A DNA stretch of 43,205 nucleotides from positions 1-43,205 of IMG/VR virus record IMGVR_UViG_3300009506_000069; one strand, written 5' to 3'. Of this stretch, positions 1 through 43,205 are shown piece by piece. The stretch is from a virus. Its lineage: Duplodnaviria; Caudoviricetes. A program made the translations under genes and the position numbers. The notes beneath the pieces were generated by a model that searched no databases, was not told the origin of the DNA, and was given only the letters and a program-made list of their open reading frames with translations. Numbering within the stretch: position 1 is the stretch's first letter; every line of letters begins with the position of its first letter.

Positions 1-144
1 CCAAGCCTTGAGGAGCGATCAGACTTCCTCACGGTTTTCAATGACCGTTTGGATATCGTCCACTTCGGTCACCACACGTCAAGATCTCTAACGCCATACA
101 AGAGACCGGTGTCATCCGGTCAGGATCTGGAGTTCAGAGAGCTT
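1..144. repeat. Terminal direct repeat, copy 1 (circular overlap)
   Basis: 1-144 is identical to 43062-43205. Confidence 0.95.
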
Positions 145-13593: not shown

Positions 13594-13920
13594 ATGTCTT
13601 ACAGAAAATTAGTTGACGACCTGAACGAATGGCAGGGTGAAAGCCTTGAGAAAACTCTACGCAGGGGCGACGGTGTCGTGTGGGGTGATAATGAGTCAGG
13701 GGTATGGGAACTGTACAACGGATCTGGTACACAGGTTGCCAATGGTGTATGCACCAAGACACAGGACAAGATGGGGATAGTGGCACTCGTTCCGGAGTCG
13801 GACACTGCTGCCCTCGTAGGCAACCACGTCCTGTTGGTATACCGCTTGGACAGTAATGATGTGGGGGTAAAGGGCGTCATAGCCGAGTACCATATCGTGT
13901 ACAAGAAAAAGAGTGCGTAA
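13594..13920 (+). CDS. Hypothetical Ig/BppU-like structural protein
   Basis: 108 aa beta-rich; AGGAG RBS. Confidence 0.5.
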   Translation: MSYRKLVDDLNEWQGESLEKTLRRGDGVVWGDNESGVWELYNGSGTQVANGVCTKTQDKMGIVALVPESDTAALVGNHVLLVYRLDSNDVGVKGVIAEYHIVYKKKSA

Positions 13921-14240
13921 TGTCTCAAAAAGTCGTTGGAGACTTTGTAAAGGTCGGAACGAGGTGGATGTTGGCGACAACCCTGATCTCCTTCACCCTA
14001 TCAGGTATCCTGACGATGCTCGGGAAAGACTGGTATGGGTATATCACTTCGGTCCCAGTTACAGCGCAGCAGGTTGAAGCAAACAGGGTCAAGCTCGACA
14101 CGATCGGGAAGGACGTCAAAGAGCTTCTAATTTTGAATCACAAAAATGACGTGACACTTCATGAGCACTCGGTGGTGCTGAGATACCATGCCGATGATCT
14201 AAAGAAGTGCAGGGAAAAATTGTTTGTAAGAGGAGACTGA
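13920..14240 (+). CDS. Single-TM coiled-coil membrane protein (lysis cassette)
   Basis: Hydrophobic WMLATTLISFTLSGILTML then heptads; TAATG coupling. Confidence 0.55.
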   Translation: MSQKVVGDFVKVGTRWMLATTLISFTLSGILTMLGKDWYGYITSVPVTAQQVEANRVKLDTIGKDVKELLILNHKNDVTLHEHSVVLRYHADDLKKCREKLFVRGD

Positions 14241-14241
14241 G

Positions 14242-14613
14242 ATGGTATCTTGGTGGAGCACAATATTTGGTGGAAGTAACGTAGTCAACGACTCGATGGA
14301 GTTGATAGACAACGCGTTCTACACAGATCAGGAGAAGGCAGGGCAGAAGATCGCGCTGCTTGAGTCGTATCACCCATTCAAACTGATCCAACGCTTTCTG
14401 GCGATGTGGATCACGTCGGTGTTCATGGGTTTGCTGACACTGGAGGTGGTATTGGTGATCATCGGGCAATGGTTCCCGAGGGCGATCGAGGCCATCGCAA
14501 TGATCAACACGCTGTCCATGGTAGAGATGCTCGGGTGGGCGTTTGTTGCTGTGGTATCTCTGTACTTTACGGGCGGGGTTATCAATACTTTTGCAGGGAG
14601 GAAGAAGACATGA
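14242..14613 (+). CDS. Holin (3TM-holin-like)
   Basis: IDNAFYTDQEKA motif plus two clear TM segments, next to the endolysin. Confidence 0.7.
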   Translation: MVSWWSTIFGGSNVVNDSMELIDNAFYTDQEKAGQKIALLESYHPFKLIQRFLAMWITSVFMGLLTLEVVLVIIGQWFPRAIEAIAMINTLSMVEMLGWAFVAVVSLYFTGGVINTFAGRKKT

Positions 14614-17110: not shown

Positions 17111-17222
17111 TGCTGTCCTTTTCGTAGTTGTATTGTATGTAGGCCATCCCGAAGACGTAGATGGCAAAGCCGGTGATAGCGAGCAGCCACACGAGCGCAT
17201 TAGAATGGGATCTCGTCTTCAT
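17007..17222 (-). CDS. Possible small membrane protein overlapping ssb and the MazG-like gene
   Basis: TM segment LVWLLAITGFAIYVFGMAYI with genome-typical codons fills the gap; weak RBS. Confidence 0.35.
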   Translation of the reverse strand: MKTRSHSNALVWLLAITGFAIYVFGMAYIQYNYEKDSNAISGLQLQQTEERIQMGCSERAEDAPRRDQGVR

Positions 17223-17805
17223 CTATGTCGATCGGAGGTTGCTGTTGCGGGTCCATCAGGCTGCCCTGATTCGGATTACCGTATTGTGGTTGCTGCGGTT
17301 GCTGCTGCGGTTGTTGGTACGCGGTGTGAGGCTGCTGCTGTGGCTGCTGTGGCTGCTGTGGCTGCTGTGGCTGTGGCTGCTGCTGCGGTTGGTTGTACCC
17401 TCCGTGCTGCTGCTGCGGAGCATTGTACCCTCCATGCTGCTGTGGCTGCTGATAACCGCCTCCCTGACCCTGACCATTGTCCTGCTTCTGATCGAGCATC
17501 TGCATGCTCTCTACGGCCACAGAGTGCTTAGATTTTTTAGCACCACTCTGGTCAACCCACTGGTCGAACTGAAGCCGGCCCTCTACTAAGATCTTGGACC
17601 CTTTTCGCAGGTACTGGTTAGCAACCTCTGCGGAGCGACCAAAGAAGGTGATGTCGATGAACATGACCTCTTCTTTCTTTTCGCCGTTCTGCGTGAACTT
17701 TCGGCTCGTTGCGATGGCCGTCTTGGCTATCGCCAGTCCGGCTTGAGAATATCTCAGCTCGATATCGCGTGTCAGGTTACCGACAAGGACTACTTTGTTA
17801 AACAT
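17200..17805 (-). CDS. ssb: Single-stranded DNA-binding protein
   Basis: MFNKVVLVGNLTRDIELRY OB-fold; acidic tip DIDEDEIPF. Confidence 0.97.
   Translation of the reverse strand: MFNKVVLVGNLTRDIELRYSQAGLAIAKTAIATSRKFTQNGEKKEEVMFIDITFFGRSAEVANQYLRKGSKILVEGRLQFDQWVDQSGAKKSKHSVAVESMQMLDQKQDNGQGQGGGYQQPQQHGGYNAPQQQHGGYNQPQQQPQPQQPQQPQQPQQQPHTAYQQPQQQPQQPQYGNPNQGSLMDPQQQPPIDIDEDEIPF
17281..17480 (-). repeat. QQP/QQHGGYN low-complexity repeats in the SSB linker
   Basis: Tandem 9-nt ggctgctgt units. Confidence 0.8.
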
Positions 17806-28211: not shown

Positions 28212-28721
28212 ATGATGCACGATGAAGATCAATTTCAACTTGGCGACGAGACAGCCGAGTTCATGGAACTGGGGGAGAAGGTCCTCAAAGAGTCAAGGGA
28301 GAAACAGAGTTGTGAGCGCCTCGAGAGAGCTGTTCGTGACGAGATGATCGAAGAGGCTGACCGATCGTTCGATGAAGATCTCGGGCTCTCAACTGGTGGC
28401 ATGAAGCGCAGCAATACTGAAGAGGAGTTCCTCGAAAAGATGGCCAAGCGAAAACATGACATGGAGAGAACCATGATCAGGGCAGCGATCGCACATGACA
28501 TCGGGATAGACATCGAGTCAGACATCATGGACGGCCGTGACTCAGAGCTGCTCAATGTGATCACAGACGTGGCTATGGGCAACCGTGAGTCATACAACTG
28601 GCTCAAGAGAGAGCTGTACCGGCCACACGAGCAGCCTCAGGACCCGATCATGGTCCACGAGGCACCGCATGTCGTCATCAACGTATCGGGGGACTACTAT
28701 GGCTCGCTACATAGGGACTAA
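28212..28721 (+). CDS. Acidic hypothetical protein
   Basis: GGAGG RBS before ATG 28212. Confidence 0.6.
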   Translation: MMHDEDQFQLGDETAEFMELGEKVLKESREKQSCERLERAVRDEMIEEADRSFDEDLGLSTGGMKRSNTEEEFLEKMAKRKHDMERTMIRAAIAHDIGIDIESDIMDGRDSELLNVITDVAMGNRESYNWLKRELYRPHEQPQDPIMVHEAPHVVINVSGDYYGSLHRD

Positions 28722-29076
28722 AGTCGTAGAGGCGCAGCCACAGGTCCAGAACGGCGAGGAGGGCTACGAAGTCATCTATTCCGACGGATATGCCTCGTGG
28801 TCTCCTAAAGACGTTTTTGAGGCATCCTACAACCTTGTGAGCCACATGAACTTCGGTGACTGTCTGTACTACATGAAGGCCGGCGCTGCAGTGCGTCTGC
28901 CGATGTGGGGCGAAGGGGTCATGATCAGAGCCCAGTTCCCAGACGAACATTCGAAGATGACTCACCCATATCTATACGTCGAGAGTCCTAACGGCAGGGT
29001 ACCTTGGACGCCAACATTCATCGAGCTGCTCAGAGAAGACTGGGAACTCGTTGTAGAAGGAGGCGAAGATGTCTAA
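28699..29076 (+). CDS. Tad2/DUF2829-like sponge fused to an N-terminal YIGTK...SWSPKDVFE domain
   Basis: MNFGD.L..MKAG..V...W...PYLY...VPWTP...LL.EDW. Confidence 0.78.
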   Translation: MARYIGTKVVEAQPQVQNGEEGYEVIYSDGYASWSPKDVFEASYNLVSHMNFGDCLYYMKAGAAVRLPMWGEGVMIRAQFPDEHSKMTHPYLYVESPNGRVPWTPTFIELLREDWELVVEGGEDV

Positions 29077-29224
29077 GAAGTATGTCGTTACGACCGGCGA
29101 CGGTCACAGGATAGGTGAGCACTACTACACTGACTGGCTCGTGCTCGCAGTGTGGAGACTATGGCGGATCAAGCTTGACGGCCAGAACCGGCTCGTATGG
29201 AAGCAGCTGAGAGTGAATGTATGA
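29069..29224 (+). CDS. Hypothetical protein, 51 aa (not in ORF track)
   Basis: AGGAGG RBS; ATGA overlap with the TerL start. Confidence 0.6.
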   Translation: MSKKYVVTTGDGHRIGEHYYTDWLVLAVWRLWRIKLDGQNRLVWKQLRVNV

Positions 29225-30678
29225 CGATGACACCCGAGCAGATCGCAGCAGAAAAAGAGCAGATGATCATCGACTGGGGGAACAGCATCGAGCTGTTCGT
29301 TCACGAGGCGCTCGGGGTTAACCTGTACTTCAAAGAGGATCCTGACTACGACGAGCAGCAGCTCTGGGTCCTTCAAGATATCGACCGTGGTGAACAGAAC
29401 ATCGCGATCGCATCCGGACACGGTACCGGCAAGACCGCGCTCCTCGCGTGGGTAATCCTATGGATTGGGTTTTTTAAGTACGACGCCAAGATCCCAGTGA
29501 CTGCTCCGACTGCACCTCAACTCATACGACTACTCATACCAGAGGTCCGCAAGTGGGCGGAGAAGCTGCCTGCGGAGCTCAAGAAGGCCGTCAGCGTCAA
29601 GCAGGACCACGTCACATTCACCACGGAGAACGTATGCGTGGCCAGAACGGCACGTAAAGAGGCCCCAGAGGGTCTTCAGGGGTTTCACGCTACATTTCTC
29701 GGGTGGATCATCGACGAAGCGTCAGGTGTTGCGAACAACATCTTCGAGGTCATCGACGGATCCCTGACCGGCGAAGACTATCTACGGATCATGCCGGCCA
29801 ACCCTACAAGAACAGAAGGATATTTCTATGATGCATTCCATAAAAACCGCTCGCTGTGGAAGTGCCACACGTTCAACGCAGAACGAAGCCGAAACGTCAC
29901 AAAAGAGTCAATCGAACGAAAGCGGGTCCAGTACGGCCGTGATTCGGATGCTTATCGCGTTCGTGTGCTTGGTCAGTTTCCCCGTTCGTCTTCTGACTCT
30001 GTTATTCCGCTCTACGTCATCGAAGAGGCGATCATCCGTGACCCGTCGGAGACGAATCGCGCAGGCGCTGAAGTTTGGGGCCTTGATTATGCTGACATGG
30101 GTGACGATACTACTCGCCTTGCAAAGCGTGTTGGTCATGACTTTTATGCTGTCGAACAGTGTCCTGCTGAAGGAGCACATCGGCAAGTCGCAACAGCAGA
30201 CTGGCTCGCCTTCCAGTACAACAGAGCCGATCGAAAACCAAAGGCCATCTTCGTCGATGCCATTGGAGAGGGATCCGGTCTTATATCCGTCCTACGGATG
30301 GATCATTACTCACACATCCCCGTAGTTCCAATAAAAGGCAGTTCGGCTGCAATAGAGAGTGAGATATACTTGAACAAGCGATCCGAGCTCTTCTTCAGGC
30401 TGAAGGGCATGTTGGAAGACGAAGGACGCATGCTTGACGATGACTCGATCATCGGTGAGCTATCTGCTCAGAAGTTCAAGATCTCTACCGGAGGGAAGCT
30501 TCAGCTGATCCCGAAGGAAGAGATCAAGGAAGAGCTCGGGAGATCTCCAGATCAGGCCGATGCGATGGCTTTATGCTGCGCAGAGATCATCGTAACGGAA
30601 GAGGACGTCGAAGAGGCCAACAAGCGTTACCACACCGAGTTTGTAGAAGAAGACGACGGGGGGTACGGTTCATGGTAG
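29221..30678 (+). CDS. terL: Terminase large subunit
   Basis: SGHGTGKT Walker A, IIDEASG Walker B, NPTR, GLDYA, RSPDQADA. Confidence 0.95.
   Translation: MTMTPEQIAAEKEQMIIDWGNSIELFVHEALGVNLYFKEDPDYDEQQLWVLQDIDRGEQNIAIASGHGTGKTALLAWVILWIGFFKYDAKIPVTAPTAPQLIRLLIPEVRKWAEKLPAELKKAVSVKQDHVTFTTENVCVARTARKEAPEGLQGFHATFLGWIIDEASGVANNIFEVIDGSLTGEDYLRIMPANPTRTEGYFYDAFHKNRSLWKCHTFNAERSRNVTKESIERKRVQYGRDSDAYRVRVLGQFPRSSSDSVIPLYVIEEAIIRDPSETNRAGAEVWGLDYADMGDDTTRLAKRVGHDFYAVEQCPAEGAHRQVATADWLAFQYNRADRKPKAIFVDAIGEGSGLISVLRMDHYSHIPVVPIKGSSAAIESEIYLNKRSELFFRLKGMLEDEGRMLDDDSIIGELSAQKFKISTGGKLQLIPKEEIKEELGRSPDQADAMALCCAEIIVTEEDVEEANKRYHTEFVEEDDGGYGSW
29828..30325 (+). CDS. Putative overprinted two-TM membrane protein inside terL (+1 frame, 165 aa)
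   Basis: AAGGA-7nt-ATG; two ~24-29-aa hydrophobic runs separated by an Arg-rich loop; T-ending TerL codons at those runs. Confidence 0.65.
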   Translation: MMHSIKTARCGSATRSTQNEAETSQKSQSNESGSSTAVIRMLIAFVCLVSFPVRLLTLLFRSTSSKRRSSVTRRRRIAQALKFGALIMLTWVTILLALQSVLVMTFMLSNSVLLKEHIGKSQQQTGSPSSTTEPIENQRPSSSMPLERDPVLYPSYGWIITHTSP

Positions 30679-30980
30679 AAGACAAAGAGAAGACGATCGT
30701 GTGTCACGAGCCTAATGCAGGGCGACTGCTGAATCTTGAGGCGATGATCTTTTTGAATGGTGGCGATCCGTTCAAGGCACTGGCCTTCGCAAGAAGGTAT
30801 GATCAAGTGCGGGTGACGGTGAGTCTTGAGTCAATCGAAAGGGCTCTCATGGCGTGGTGGATAAACACCGGTTGGGAGGATTCCCAGATCGTTGAGGCGT
30901 TGAGCACAGAGGACCGCAAGGTCACACTGGCCAGAGTCGAGAGAATGAGGAGAAAACTAAATGTCAAAGAAGAAGACTAG
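30672..30980 (+). CDS. Hypothetical protein, possibly Mor-like HTH activator
   Basis: ALAFARRY...V.V...C-terminal HTH-like segment; weak resemblance only. Confidence 0.4.
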   Translation: MVEDKEKTIVCHEPNAGRLLNLEAMIFLNGGDPFKALAFARRYDQVRVTVSLESIERALMAWWINTGWEDSQIVEALSTEDRKVTLARVERMRRKLNVKEED

Positions 30981-32664
30981 GGCGGATATCATCGAGGCCA
31001 GTAAGGCACAGATGATCCTGCTCAAAGACACTGCGATGCGCGGGTATGATCAGCACGAGGCTGACTTCCTGACGCTTGAGCAGGCGTACATCGGTACCGT
31101 GGACGAACGGCAGCGGACATCACTCAAGAAGAGACGAAAGTCTTCACTGGAGATCCAGATCATCAAGCCGAAGGTCATGAAGGTCACACGTGAGATCATG
31201 AAGTCGTTCTTTGGGGGCAACGAGCTCGCGAAGATCACACCGGAGAACAGCGAAGACAAGGATCTTGTCAAGGCGTTATCAGAGGAGCTAAAAGACTATG
31301 CAAGAACCGAGAAGTTTTACACGCGATGCAAGCCATCTATTCGAAATCAACTTGTTTATGGAACTTCTGTCTCCAAGGTTTACTGGGCGAACAATAATGT
31401 CCGCATTGAAAACTGCTCTCTCGCCGATGTGTGGATTGACCCATACGCTCAGGATGCGGATTCGGTCAAATATGTCGTTCACAGAATCACCTCCCTAACG
31501 ATAGGGGACATCAAGCGATGGGTTCAGGCTCGATGGGACGACAGATCAGACAGAACCAACGGTCTGGTTGAGGTCAACCCGAGCAGCGTTGACTGGACCA
31601 AGTTCGCGAACAACAGCGCAGCGATGAACGGATCCGTTGAGGATGTTGGGGAATACGCTCGTCCGGAGATGTACGAGATCTACCGCATCACACCGAACGG
31701 GTGGACTGTTTCGACGATGATGGACAACGAGGAGTTCATGCGACTCGAGGAGCCACTCAATGACGGCAACCCGTTCATCATCTCTCAGCAGGATCCGCAG
31801 TTCGTCGGTATCAAAGAGACGCCGGTCAGAGGTTACGGCGCTCCGTTCATCGACGCTATGATCCCGCTGCAGAAAGAGTACGCGATCCGTCGCAACCAAC
31901 AGATCGACGCCATTGACATGCAGCTCAATATGCGTCTACTGACTACGAAGAACAACGGTCTGAGAGAGGAGGACCTGAACTCGCAGCGCAAGAAGCTCGA
32001 AGTGTCAGATCCGAACATGGTGGTACCGCTGCCAACCCCTCGCATCGATCAGTCGTTCTTCGATACAGACAAGCTCGAGAGCGAGATGCAGGAGATCTCC
32101 GGAGTCACCAAGTACTCTCAGGGGATCAACGACAAGGCCAACCTCAACCAGACGGCCACAGGCATGTCTATTCTCGCGCAGGAAGGGTCAGGTACCATCG
32201 ATGACGTGAACAGGTCAGTGAACGAGTCTTTCTTCACGCCTATCGTCCATCGCATCGTCCACCTGATCTACAAGTACAAGGAATCAGAGCGGTTCGCAAA
32301 CGTGACACGTCTTGGAACACTGAAGGCGAAGATCCTTATTGACGTCGGCACCGGATCGACCAACAAAGAGATGCAGCTGAACAACATCGACAACGCGATC
32401 ATCGCCGTCGGTGACTCTATAGAGAAGTTCAGGAACATAGAAAAGTTGGAAGAAGTTGACAAATATGCTAAACTTCTTGACTCACTTAACCGAGAGAAAC
32501 TTAAGATACTTGGGTTTGGAACCCTTATGGAGGAGATAGACGATGATTACGAGCAACAACAACAAGCAGCAGCCGAACTCGGAGCAATCGGAGCAAGTAC
32601 AGGAGCAGTCGGAGAAAATGGAGCAGGAGGGCCAATTATTGAGCCTTCAGCGCCTCCTGCTTGA
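30961..32664 (+). CDS. Portal protein (SU10/P22-like)
   Basis: 567 aa after TerL; LVYGTSVSKVYW, VWIDP, MQEISGV...QG...NQTATG. Confidence 0.9.
   Translation: MSKKKTRADIIEASKAQMILLKDTAMRGYDQHEADFLTLEQAYIGTVDERQRTSLKKRRKSSLEIQIIKPKVMKVTREIMKSFFGGNELAKITPENSEDKDLVKALSEELKDYARTEKFYTRCKPSIRNQLVYGTSVSKVYWANNNVRIENCSLADVWIDPYAQDADSVKYVVHRITSLTIGDIKRWVQARWDDRSDRTNGLVEVNPSSVDWTKFANNSAAMNGSVEDVGEYARPEMYEIYRITPNGWTVSTMMDNEEFMRLEEPLNDGNPFIISQQDPQFVGIKETPVRGYGAPFIDAMIPLQKEYAIRRNQQIDAIDMQLNMRLLTTKNNGLREEDLNSQRKKLEVSDPNMVVPLPTPRIDQSFFDTDKLESEMQEISGVTKYSQGINDKANLNQTATGMSILAQEGSGTIDDVNRSVNESFFTPIVHRIVHLIYKYKESERFANVTRLGTLKAKILIDVGTGSTNKEMQLNNIDNAIIAVGDSIEKFRNIEKLEEVDKYAKLLDSLNREKLKILGFGTLMEEIDDDYEQQQQAAAELGAIGASTGAVGENGAGGPIIEPSAPPA
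31298..31498 (+). CDS. Putative overprinted +1-frame ORF inside the portal gene (66 aa)
   Basis: GAGGAG-10nt-ATG; local switch to ATT/AAT/TAT/GAT/TTT codons. Confidence 0.45.
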   Translation: MQEPRSFTRDASHLFEINLFMELLSPRFTGRTIMSALKTALSPMCGLTHTLRMRIRSNMSFTESPP

Positions 32665-37320: not shown

Positions 37321-39572
37321 CAGAGAACTATTTTGAGATAGACAAGGACGGGAACGTCACAGTATCCGCATTCCTTCAGGCGCTCTTCCCAGACCTTACA
37401 TACGAGCTATCCGACGACATGAGAAGCATCAAGGTGAACTATGGAGCGCTCAAATGCACCGGTGGCCAGACAGCGTTCGTGAGATCTACCAGTGACGGCC
37501 TCATAAGGTACAACCGGCACGACCTTACATCTGCGTCGCCTCTTCCGTACATCGTATTTGACATCGAGACAAGAACGCTCACGATGGACACATCTGGTCA
37601 TGGGATCTACGGGTACGCTGCGAATAGGGCCTACGTTGACCAGTTCATCACAGAGTGTTCAACGATCGCCCCGTTTGTTGACAGGCTGATTCTAAAGGTT
37701 GACTACTACTACCTATTCGCACCGGTCGGGCTTGAGCTATGGCTTGATGGGGCCGGAGATCTTCTTCTCCCAAATCTAAGGCACTTCACATACGACTGCA
37801 TAGCGTACTCAACGCTATACAATGTGGCCTACACGTATGATCGCAATTCCAACAACTCCTACTTTCACCCTACGGAGTCTGGCGTGATCCTGTACAACAG
37901 CTACCCGAACAGCTTCGTTGCCCCTATCCCGCACAAGTTCTGGAACCTTGCAAACGAGCTGAGAGGGTACAGTGAAGGCCTTGGCAGCTATGCAGATCCA
38001 CTGATTAATACAACACCAAAAGAGGGGTATGAATACGAGTTTAATTATTTCTACAACACCTACAAGGTTTATGCCGACTTTGTAAGCAAAATAGGCGTGT
38101 TCGGTGGTCACAATATTGCAACTACAATTGATAGGCTTGTTACGCTGATACAGACATGGACTGCGAACTCTACAGTCCTCGGGGTAGTCATTACACGCAT
38201 TGATGAGCTTCCATTTGCTCCTACGAAGATATCCACGATCCACCCAGAAATGAGTGACGTTGTTGAGTACAACTCTCAGAACTTCCTGCAGTTCAATATC
38301 ATATCCCCGTTCCCCGCACTTGAGATTTTCACTCACCCGAGCGCAACATTTGACCTACAGAACGGGATACTGACGTTGGCATCATCAAACTACAACAGCA
38401 CAGCTCGCAACTTCGGAACACTTCCATTCGATGCGGTGAGCGACCTGAAACTGAAGTCAATCGTCCACCACGGTCAGGCCTATGATTCGAACGGAAACAT
38501 GGACTCTGAGTCAATCTACGTTGGGGTTGTCGGCGCTGCGATGTGTGACCTGAACGCAATGGCATACCTCGGGGAGATGAAGCTTACATACCTTACCACA
38601 GGGAACATCGTGTTCTACTGGAACAGAAACCACCAGTCGATCGGGGCTATTGACGCAACACATATCAACTTCCTGTTTGGCACTTGGGCCGTGAACGGTT
38701 CGTACTGTTGGATCAACCTCACATCGGTGACGATCTTCGAAGGTGGCAGCTATTCTGGCCTCAACGTTAACCCGAACATCACCGAGCTGTGGTGTGTGCC
38801 TACGACAATGACGATCCCCCAAGAGGTGCTGACAGCATTCCCGAACCTTGACACGATCAACGGGATCCCGATGAACTCAAACTGGTTTGCCGATGCGATA
38901 GAGGCCGGCACGATAGTCTGGTACCCTACACGATGGAATCAGGCGTGGATCTGGCACGAGAGCTATCACAACATCGTGACACGTGCTTCAGGCCTTGTCG
39001 ACGACGGCGTGCAGGTCATGGAGATGCCGAGGACGATCGCTGATCTCAATGTGACCATAGACGTCGGCGTGGCGGATCCGGTTCCGTACCAGAACCTGCA
39101 TAGTGTGGCGAAGCGTTTCGCTCAGCTCGACACGCAACTCCCGCACGAGTACCTAAAAGTCAACCTCGGCATGAATATCGAGACAGAGTGCTGCAAGCAC
39201 GGTGTGACTGTATACTTCTGGTGGAACGACACGGACAGCGACTTCCAAGACTATGCGCACGGCAGGATCTCCAACTTCGCACGTGAGACTCCGCCGGCTG
39301 ATCTGACAAACGTCAAGAAGCTGCTGATGGTATCTCTAAACTGGGAGACGGTTGAGTTCTTAAAGAATGACGCGTTTGTGGCCAAGGACCTTACACTCAA
39401 CCAGATCTACCCAGTGAAGGTGTCCTACAGCATCTCAACCGGCAGCGGTCTCACTGGTCCTCAGCCACTCAGGATCCAGTCGGCCGTGACTTATCAGGAC
39501 GGTTCCGCAGCCGGCACCGATCTCTCAGTCTGCACCGCGCACGGTGTGAAAGCGAGTAAGCTCTATGTATAG
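37317..39572 (+). CDS. Large hypothetical virion protein (LRR-like segments)
   Basis: 751 aa; LPNLRHF, NITELW, FPNLDTI. Confidence 0.55.
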   Translation: MTENYFEIDKDGNVTVSAFLQALFPDLTYELSDDMRSIKVNYGALKCTGGQTAFVRSTSDGLIRYNRHDLTSASPLPYIVFDIETRTLTMDTSGHGIYGYAANRAYVDQFITECSTIAPFVDRLILKVDYYYLFAPVGLELWLDGAGDLLLPNLRHFTYDCIAYSTLYNVAYTYDRNSNNSYFHPTESGVILYNSYPNSFVAPIPHKFWNLANELRGYSEGLGSYADPLINTTPKEGYEYEFNYFYNTYKVYADFVSKIGVFGGHNIATTIDRLVTLIQTWTANSTVLGVVITRIDELPFAPTKISTIHPEMSDVVEYNSQNFLQFNIISPFPALEIFTHPSATFDLQNGILTLASSNYNSTARNFGTLPFDAVSDLKLKSIVHHGQAYDSNGNMDSESIYVGVVGAAMCDLNAMAYLGEMKLTYLTTGNIVFYWNRNHQSIGAIDATHINFLFGTWAVNGSYCWINLTSVTIFEGGSYSGLNVNPNITELWCVPTTMTIPQEVLTAFPNLDTINGIPMNSNWFADAIEAGTIVWYPTRWNQAWIWHESYHNIVTRASGLVDDGVQVMEMPRTIADLNVTIDVGVADPVPYQNLHSVAKRFAQLDTQLPHEYLKVNLGMNIETECCKHGVTVYFWWNDTDSDFQDYAHGRISNFARETPPADLTNVKKLLMVSLNWETVEFLKNDAFVAKDLTLNQIYPVKVSYSISTGSGLTGPQPLRIQSAVTYQDGSAAGTDLSVCTAHGVKASKLYV

Positions 39573-43061: not shown

Positions 43062-43205
43062 CCAAGCCTTGAGGAGCGATCAGACTTCCTCACGGTTTTC
43101 AATGACCGTTTGGATATCGTCCACTTCGGTCACCACACGTCAAGATCTCTAACGCCATACAAGAGACCGGTGTCATCCGGTCAGGATCTGGAGTTCAGAG
43201 AGCTT
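43062..43205. repeat. Terminal direct repeat, copy 2
   Basis: Identical to 1-144; unit genome 43061 bp. Confidence 0.95.

Follow-up and report, generated by a model that had tools for sequence, protein, structure and literature searches.

Does the gene for the terminase large subunit (terL) of an uncultured marine-sediment phage carry, inside its own coding sequence, a second gene for a membrane protein? The question is raised by IMG/VR record IMGVR_UViG_3300009506_000069, the 43,205 bases of which were analysed in full (hereafter the window), and in which an open reading frame (ORF) of 165 codons, here called ORF165, lies nested in the +1 frame of terL and had been read in an earlier note as a membrane protein with two hydrophobic helices. 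The synonymous sites of terL are biased as such a second frame requires. This signature of second-frame selection is genuine and far outside every null that was built; the codon pattern matches what selection for hydrophobic +1 residues would produce, and no other tested cause explains it. The reading favoured here, tentatively and at slightly less than an even chance, is that ORF165 would be an overprinted gene, young and specific to its lineage, that encodes a helical hairpin of the inner membrane.

Codon signature, start signals and predicted product

In the arrangement of the two frames, the third position of each terL codon is the second position of a +1 codon, so that a T at this site always yields phenylalanine, leucine, isoleucine, methionine or valine and never a stop. 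When expected counts are taken from terL's own per-amino-acid codon usage, the 24 codons over predicted helix 1 have T at the third position 16 times (6.9 expected, z 4.2) and A not once (4.2 expected), and those over predicted helix 2 again have T at 16 of 24 sites (6.6 expected, z 4.4) with a single A (3.7 expected). Over the loop that separates them, the composition is normal, with T at 4 of 24 third positions (4.4 expected) and C or G at 17. The tails differ from the helices in the opposite direction: third positions over the N-terminal tail are rich in A (11 versus 6.6 expected) and poor in T (3 versus 7.2), and those over the C-terminal tail are also A-rich (18 versus 10.9). The earlier note had described third positions that turn T-rich over both helices and revert to C or G between them, and the counts confirm this description.

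The +1 frame has a stop at 29765 and is open from 29768 for 185 codons to the stop at 30323; the ATG at 29828 is its first start. Ahead of this ATG stands a Shine–Dalgarno (SD)-like AAGGA at a distance of 7 nt, and the real genes of the phage have AAAGGA, AAGGA or AGGAG about 3–8 nt ahead of ATG, with AAGGA at the same spacing also preceding the genes at 1298, 14999, 33804 (major capsid), 35175 and 37317. ORF165 thus has start signals of its own, AAGGA, 7 nt and ATGATG, that fit the pattern of phage genes. The motif, its spacing, the double ATG and the 165-residue +1 frame had all been pointed out before and are present in the sequence and frame as described. The accompanying claim that the site is built from non-preferred terL codons holds, by codon usage across the window, for GAA (24%), GGA (21%), TAT (24%) and GAT (36%), which are minority choices, but not for TTC, which at 77% is the preferred codon. 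Folding of the start region is weak (−6.1 kcal/mol, versus −7.7 ± 3.4 for real gene starts and −13.5 ± 4.1 for terL overall). A scan for internal promoters found no sigma-70-like site in 29000–31000 (0 versus 1.1 expected), and in the absence of such a site within terL, translation of ORF165 would be from terL mRNA.

The product was examined by Kyte–Doolittle means over 19 residues (KD19; usual segment threshold 1.6) and by single-sequence AlphaFold2, and the prediction of two helices rests on these two. Both hydrophobic helices of the earlier note are recovered (Table 1), and AlphaFold2 places two long helices at residues 32–64 and 70–123 (pLDDT ~70–89) between tails that are both disordered. 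The loop between the helices, claimed to be of the positive-inside type, does contain nine lysine or arginine residues and no aspartate or glutamate. According to the positive-inside rule, basic loops face the cytoplasm; given the loop's composition, it would be cytoplasmic and the tails periplasmic.

Table 1. Features of the terL region, in window coordinates; helices and tails are predictions
Feature	Positions	Strand	Remarks
terL, terminase large subunit (host gene)	29197..30678	+	493 codons; PHROG phrog_2 4e-40, phrog_5902 1e-48
ORF165, 165 aa, nested in the terL +1 frame	29828..30325	+	Begins ATGATG; TAG stop 30323-30325
Shine–Dalgarno-like AAGGA, 7 nt before ATG	29816..29820	+	Formed by terL codons GAA-GGA, both minority
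Hydrophilic N-terminal tail, aa 1-36	29828..29935	+	AlphaFold2 pLDDT ~51-56, no secondary structure
Predicted helix 1, aa 37-60, AVIRMLIAFVCLVSFPVRLLTLLF	29936..30007	+	KD19 2.37; AlphaFold2 helix 32-64, pLDDT ~67-81
Basic loop, aa 61-84	30008..30079	+	9 K/R, 0 acidic residues
Predicted helix 2, aa 85-108, ALIMLTWVTILLALQSVLVMTFML, uncharged	30080..30151	+	KD19 2.28; AlphaFold2 helix 70-123, pLDDT ~72-89
Hydrophilic C-terminal tail, aa 109-165, S/T/Q/P-rich	30152..30322	+	pLDDT ~50
Antisense ORF, 92 aa, coincident with the T-rich patch	29908..30186	-	From the ORF list; probably a by-product

The antisense ORF of Table 1 is probably a by-product, because a shortage of A at the third positions of terL takes away TTA, CTA and TCA, which are stops on the opposite strand.

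Weight of the signature against chance

The hydropathy of the +1 frame is far outside what terL codon usage generates. In 100,000 synonymous shuffles of terL, a second +1 hydrophobic segment with KD19 of at least 2.28 never appeared, and one of at least 1.6 appeared in 21. Expressed as a z score, the second segment of the terL +1 frame reaches 7.9, whereas the next best value among 175 gene-by-frame tests on 35 window genes is 3.2, and the maximum among 406 tests on related loci (+1 and +2 frames of 203 genes) is 3.4. The codon pattern itself is equally isolated: among 156 genes of the window and the related loci with an overall third-position T content (T3) of at most 0.25, a 24-codon stretch with at least 16 T occurs in this terL alone, and there twice. 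With the helix codons held fixed in 20,000 shuffles, P is 0.045 for a stop-free remainder, 0.097 for an SD-like motif and start ahead of helix 1, and 0.0065 for the two jointly.

Two other hydrophobic frames in the window were recorded in the course of this work. The second strongest hydropathy outlier of the window is antisense frame −2 of the portal gene (30961–32664), with KD19 2.20, z 4.8 and 0 of 500 shuffles reaching it, in a single segment. An ORF of 142 aa at 17161–17589 (+), antisense to the SSB gene (17200–17805, −), has three very hydrophobic segments and is not among the top-scoring shuffle tests; it lies over a GCTGCTGTGGCTGCT-type repeat present in four copies, of which it looks like a by-product.

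Alternative causes of the T-rich patches

A range of other causes for the patches was tried, and none accounts for them. An RNA element is not indicated, as folding of 29812–30330 has z = −0.05 versus 100 shuffles. A cluster of optimal codons, as expected for translational accuracy, was rejected on the basis of the major capsid gene, which prefers T-ending codons only in fourfold and sixfold families and prefers C in twofold families such as those of Y, F, H and N (T fraction 0.07–0.31). Contrary to this usage, the helices take T in the twofold families too, as seen in the T counts for Y (3/3), F (2/2), H (1/1), C (1/1) and D (4/8), to which I (1/1) can be added. A cluster on conserved residues is also at odds with other invariant blocks of TerL, the Walker A region and the region 150–178, which have only 4–6 T per 25 codons. 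A general cluster of rare codons at the boundary between the ATPase and nuclease domains does not fit, since rare A-ending codons are depleted rather than enriched, and C-to-T hypermutation by deamination does not fit either, since the gain in T comes from A, G and C alike. Avoidance of CpG at codon junctions was set aside because the loop, read by eye, is full of CpG.

The patches are likewise not a property of the gene family or of the gene's central region. In 89 distinct terL homologues the pattern is absent: z averages 0.31 over helix 1 (maximum 3.3) and −0.10 over helix 2 (maximum 2.4), and none of the 89 has z above 2 at both helix segments. General pyrimidine enrichment of the central terL region was rejected with a mean z of −0.04. 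Recent recombination from sampled relatives was rejected too, with third-position identity hardly raised in the patch (0.33–0.46 versus 0.32–0.35). An assembly artefact is unlikely, as two runs gave independent assemblies of identical sequence. The stretch is present at 100% identity, without variant letters, in two DNA runs from one study, possibly its source; a third run from the same study had nothing matching it, and no RNA run containing it was listed.

Relatives and the age of the frame

Related loci were sampled from GTDB genomes and from a scan of JGI metagenomes spanning 56 of 64 parts (80 of 464 matches listed). IMG/VR had no relative above 46% identity, the JGI metagenomes none above 68% among the matches listed, and the GTDB genomes four related loci, the best at 65%; in the phage collection, no blastn match to the stretch was found. 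The nearest relatives with DNA (L042–L047 and L049), which include contigs of Sulfurimonas and Sulfurovum metagenome-assembled genomes, have TerL identities of 64–68% and a third-position GC content (GC3) of 0.24–0.31. Two closer TerL relatives, P0001 (91%) and P0002 (84%), were compared as proteins.

Conservation of the ORF under purifying selection was not found at 64–68% TerL identity. The earlier note had named interruption of the +1 frame in close homologues as evidence against its proposal, and the nearest relatives with DNA do have 7–14 stops there; yet stops are expected at such a low GC3, much below that of the window gene, and they show only that the ORF is not ancient. If real, ORF165 would thus not be old, as far as these sequences can tell. 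The proposal that the codon pattern reflects selection on a second frame is partly supported: the signature exceeds all nulls and the start fits those of phage genes, and the check named in the earlier note has a split outcome, the frame being broken in relatives at 64–68% whose composition makes stops likely anyway.

Interpretation and competing explanations

In the mechanism proposed for the overprinted gene, late terL mRNA would be translated in the +1 frame by ribosomes that initiate at the internal AAGGA-N7-ATG (29816–29830). The predicted 165-aa product would form a two-helix hairpin in the inner membrane, its strongly basic loop facing the cytoplasm and its two disordered tails lying outside, in the periplasm. 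Of this, the ORF, its start signals and the codon pattern are observed, while translation, membrane insertion and topology are inferred.

Several observations weigh against this proposal. The length of the ORF is weak evidence, with P = 0.03 for at least 165 codons and P = 0.024 for an open stretch of at least 185 in 5000 synonymous shuffles; shuffling of codon order gives P = 0.017 and P = 0.013 for the same two lengths. ORF165 is therefore longer than host sequence and codon usage predict, although this says little alone; the synonymous-shuffle length test is of the single-genome kind presented by Schlub et al. 2018 (PMC6188560). Nested ORFs with hydrophobic segments are frequent, in that the window has eight alternative-frame ORFs with at least two segments of KD19 1.6 or more, among which ORF165 is the sole one on the strand of its host gene. 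The weak folding at the start follows mostly from the amino-acid sequence of TerL (P = 0.14 in synonymous shuffles), and helix 1 retains two arginines and one proline, both arginines being avoidable by changes synonymous in terL. The homologous +1 stretch is interrupted in 7 of 7 nearest relatives, where the longest open run is 28–72 codons, and in these seven T3 is mildly raised across the same 82 codons (z 0.9–3.1) in spite of the broken frame; part of the bias may thus have another cause, although the excess is inconsistent at the two helices. Differences in TerL are no rarer in the span of the ORF, which makes up 34% of the length, than elsewhere (17 of 44 for P0001 and 31 of 79 for P0002). 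A search of 5.8 billion proteins gave no homologue of ORF165 (of 62 candidates that shared words with it, none reached E ≤ 0.01), a null that says little because gene finders seldom call embedded ORFs, and the protein matches no Pfam family above cutoff and no PHROG. Finally, ORF165 was chosen by eye from a very large scan of about 250,000 windows, which inflates its apparent significance.

A rival explanation, unlikely but the most probable of the rivals, is that no protein is made at all and the T-rich, A-poor patches arose from some other local constraint or history acting on the synonymous sites of terL. The open hydrophobic +1 frame would then be an automatic by-product of T at the third position of terL, and both openness and hydrophobicity do follow mechanically from T or C at these sites. 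The T3 excess in relatives with a broken frame, the avoidable arginine codons kept in helix 1 and the lack of conservation at 64–68% identity agree with this explanation, as does the location of the patches on the two most conserved local blocks of TerL, DAYRVRV..G.FP and WG.DYAD.G.D (invariant columns). Against it, other invariant TerL blocks are not T-rich, and the named alternatives that were tested (RNA structure, optimal codons, a family trend and pyrimidine enrichment) all failed; moreover, it leaves the SD motif, the ATG and the stop-free tails (jointly P = 0.0065, as above) unaccounted for. A more specific history, in which short gene-conversion tracts from an unsampled T-rich, A-poor relative replaced the two conserved blocks, is very improbable. 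Phage genomes are mosaic, and the genes of the window span GC3 0.38–0.77 and T3 0.08–0.38; the patches lie on the most conserved blocks, which for that reason are the most prone to recombination, and some distant terL genes do combine T3 of ~0.45 with a third-position A content (A3) of ~0.05. However, two separate tracts around a normal gap would be needed, the third-position identity of the patch to the nearest relatives is hardly raised, A3 in the patch of these relatives is ~0.3 versus 0.07 in the window, and none of the 359 genes sampled has a gene-wide T3 above 0.48, well under the 0.65 of the helices. The two identical assemblies also make a chimera introduced by assembly unlikely.

The same codon bias would be expected if the +1 frame were entered not by initiation but by recoding, through a programmed +1/−2 ribosomal frameshift from terL that fuses a fragment of the TerL ATPase domain to a two-helix membrane anchor. 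That the frame is open for 185 codons, beginning 20 codons upstream of the ATG, is in line with this idea; nevertheless it is highly improbable, because the SD motif and ATG are correctly placed for independent initiation, the RNA structure of the region is unremarkable, and no slippery site or stimulator is known for terL (no search for one was made here). Pure chance within so large a scan is also most unlikely. The choice by eye and the modest length P value speak for it, as does the frequency with which an SD-like motif precedes an ATG in the window (69 cases, of which 39 lie on the + strand and 30 on the − strand), but none of 100,000 shuffles matched the hydropathy, its z of 7.9 stands against empirical maxima of 3.2–3.4 in 580 other tests, and the independent start and open-frame features add their joint P value to this.

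With the overprinted gene as the preferred reading, its role can be addressed to a limited extent. The earlier note had offered four functions, namely a holin-like protein of lysis timing, superinfection exclusion, a membrane anchor for packaging and an inhibitor of terminase-sensing defence, and no test supported any of them; the holin-like option in particular disagrees with the predicted topology, the genome position and the family searches. The description adopted here goes no further than a predicted hairpin protein of the inner membrane, expressed late. Among more specific roles, an accessory that acts on the membrane in lysis timing, or another late membrane function, is the preferred but improbable guess, because ORF165 would be co-expressed with the late genes. 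Quite improbable, although worth stating, is the broader idea that terL genes are a recurrent cradle for +1 overprinted genes and that the two-helix protein ties packaging to a membrane event here; the product would come from the late mRNA of the packaging motor, and the event may be lysis timing, membrane depolarisation or exclusion.

What bears on this broader idea is an excess of long +1 ORFs in other terL genes. Four of the 89 homologues (L002, L071, L095 and L011) have a +1 ORF with P ≤ 0.002 versus shuffles, where 0.2 would be expected, compared with 0 of 89 in the +2 frame, and nested +1 ORFs in terL may thus be recurrent. The like arrangement of T7 genes 19.2 and 19.3, taken up below, also speaks for recurrence. 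The +1 ORFs recorded in homologues (39–44% identical) are L071:828–1289, L095:591–1055, L093:1792–2061, L002:1796–2308 and L011:3326–3736; they span 136–170 codons, exceeding nearly all synonymous shuffles. Similar +1 peptides are found in L071, L095 and L093, with hydrophobic segments in L071 and L095 despite GC3 of 0.39–0.49. All of these are candidates for independent overprinted genes in terL.

If the preferred reading is true, ORF165 would be a clean natural case in which a tailed phage gained a gene by overprinting, with the virion module's most conserved gene also encoding a membrane protein, one revealed by the codon choices of a single genome and missed by standard annotation. Given that terL is a common phylogenetic marker and triggers bacterial immune sensors, a concealed second coding frame would limit how it can evolve and could mislead analyses of selection. 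If ORF165 is untranslated, the two sharply bounded T-rich patches would be an unexplained anomaly of synonymous sites that is worth understanding in its own right.

Comparison with known nested genes and holins

No membrane protein nested in terL is described in the open-access literature searched, in which general papers on overlapping genes and a remark on the T7 genes discussed next were found. The closest parallel is given by genes 19.2 and 19.3 of phage T7, which, like ORF165, are same-strand ORFs lying wholly within the +1 frame of a terL gene, gene 19. In the T7 RefSeq record, gene 19 extends over 37370–39130, 19.2 over 38016–38273 and 19.3 over 38553–38726, with both offsets equal to 1 mod 3. 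In contrast to ORF165, their products are short (85 and 57 aa) and, with translations read by eye, have no clear pair of membrane helices; BLASTP between 19.2 and ORF165 gave a best E = 0.25 over 25 residues, indicating no homology, and 19.3 was not compared by a tool. Both are called hypothetical, with a potential lysis function, in PMC8365609. If ORF165 is a gene, it would add weight to the view that the nested ORFs of T7 gene 19 are no mere curiosities and that terL repeatedly hosts second genes.

Proven nested genes with small envelope-targeted products exist among late phage genes, such as Rz1 in Rz of lambda and 18.7 in 18.5 of T7, which are out of frame with their hosts; these embedded o-spanins are treated by Kongari et al. 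2018 (PMC6139136). O-spanins differ from ORF165 in being lipoproteins of the outer membrane that carry a signal peptide and a lipobox cysteine and are nested within the gene of their functional partner. In ORF165, by contrast, the N-terminus is hydrophilic, lipobox context is missing, the two hydrophobic helices are internal, and the host is a packaging gene. A signal peptide or lipobox like that of Rz1 was looked for in ORF165 and not found; its sole early cysteine, C10 (TARCGS), has no hydrophobic stretch before it.

Phage phiX174 has its lysis gene E embedded in gene D, and this gene, together with the embedded sgl genes of ssRNA phages, resembles ORF165 in being de novo, out of frame and lineage-specific, in having no homologues and in depending on a transmembrane helix as the key element. 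The single-gene lysis proteins embedded in ssRNA phage genes are described by Chamakura et al. 2020 (PMC7693330). In such phages the genome is tiny, coding pressure is strong and a holin–endolysin system is lacking, while the present case concerns a tailed phage of 43 kb with a conserved gene elsewhere for a two-helix membrane protein of its own.

Class II holins are likewise small phage proteins of late expression, in which a pair of hydrophobic helices is flanked by hydrophilic ends. ORF165 has the two predicted transmembrane segments of this class, by KD19 and by AlphaFold2 alike, but its predicted topology does not agree with the N-in/C-in arrangement and short periplasmic loop of class II holins: by its charge the 24-residue loop would lie inside and the tails (+5/−3 and +4/−5) outside, which is the opposite. 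A lysis cassette or endolysin gene as neighbour, or a match to a holin family in Pfam or PHROGs, was not found for ORF165, which lies inside terL. Membership of ORF165 among the holins is not supported by predicted topology, genome position or family matches.

Better candidates for the holin or lysis module of the phage, judging from sequence, are two genes directly after that of the 1272-aa tail protein, a one-helix ORF of 106 aa at 13920–14240 (+) and a two-helix ORF of 123 aa at 14242–14613 (+). The latter is a conserved two-helix gene (phrog_9646, 1.6e-21) that shows no similarity to ORF165. Among the window ORFs scanned (PHROGs over the ORF set and Pfam on 13), no endolysin family was recognised.

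Genomic setting of terL

The record looks complete. It contains genes for tail, recombination, replication, terS, terL, portal and capsid functions, and has a perfect direct terminal repeat of 144 nt (window 1–144 and 43062–43205). It is probably a complete, circularly assembled genome with 43,061 unique bases, for which the completeness estimate displayed is 52.

The identity of the host gene is supported by 477 homologues in a protein search, several of which are named terminase large subunit. Its true start is probably 29221 or 29227, with translational coupling, rather than 29197, because the ATG at 29197 has no SD, the TerL of the closest relatives is 10 residues shorter, and the preceding gene overlaps terL as ATGA. 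This overlap involves a 51-aa ORF at 29069–29227 (+), whose TGA (29222–29224) overlaps the ninth codon of terL (ATG 29221). Several relatives of TerL (P0015, P0017, P0047, P0058, P0075, P0078, P0082, P0086 and others; 46–67% identity) are 600–800 aa long and contain intein or homing-endonuclease domains (PF05203, PF05204 and PF14528), none of which occurs in the terL of the window. Two ORFs upstream of terL, at 28585–29076 (+), lies a gene with a Tad2-like (Thoeris anti-defence 2) domain, PF11195, matched with E = 8e-13 (49 bits versus a cutoff of 25) and matched by phrog_872 as well.

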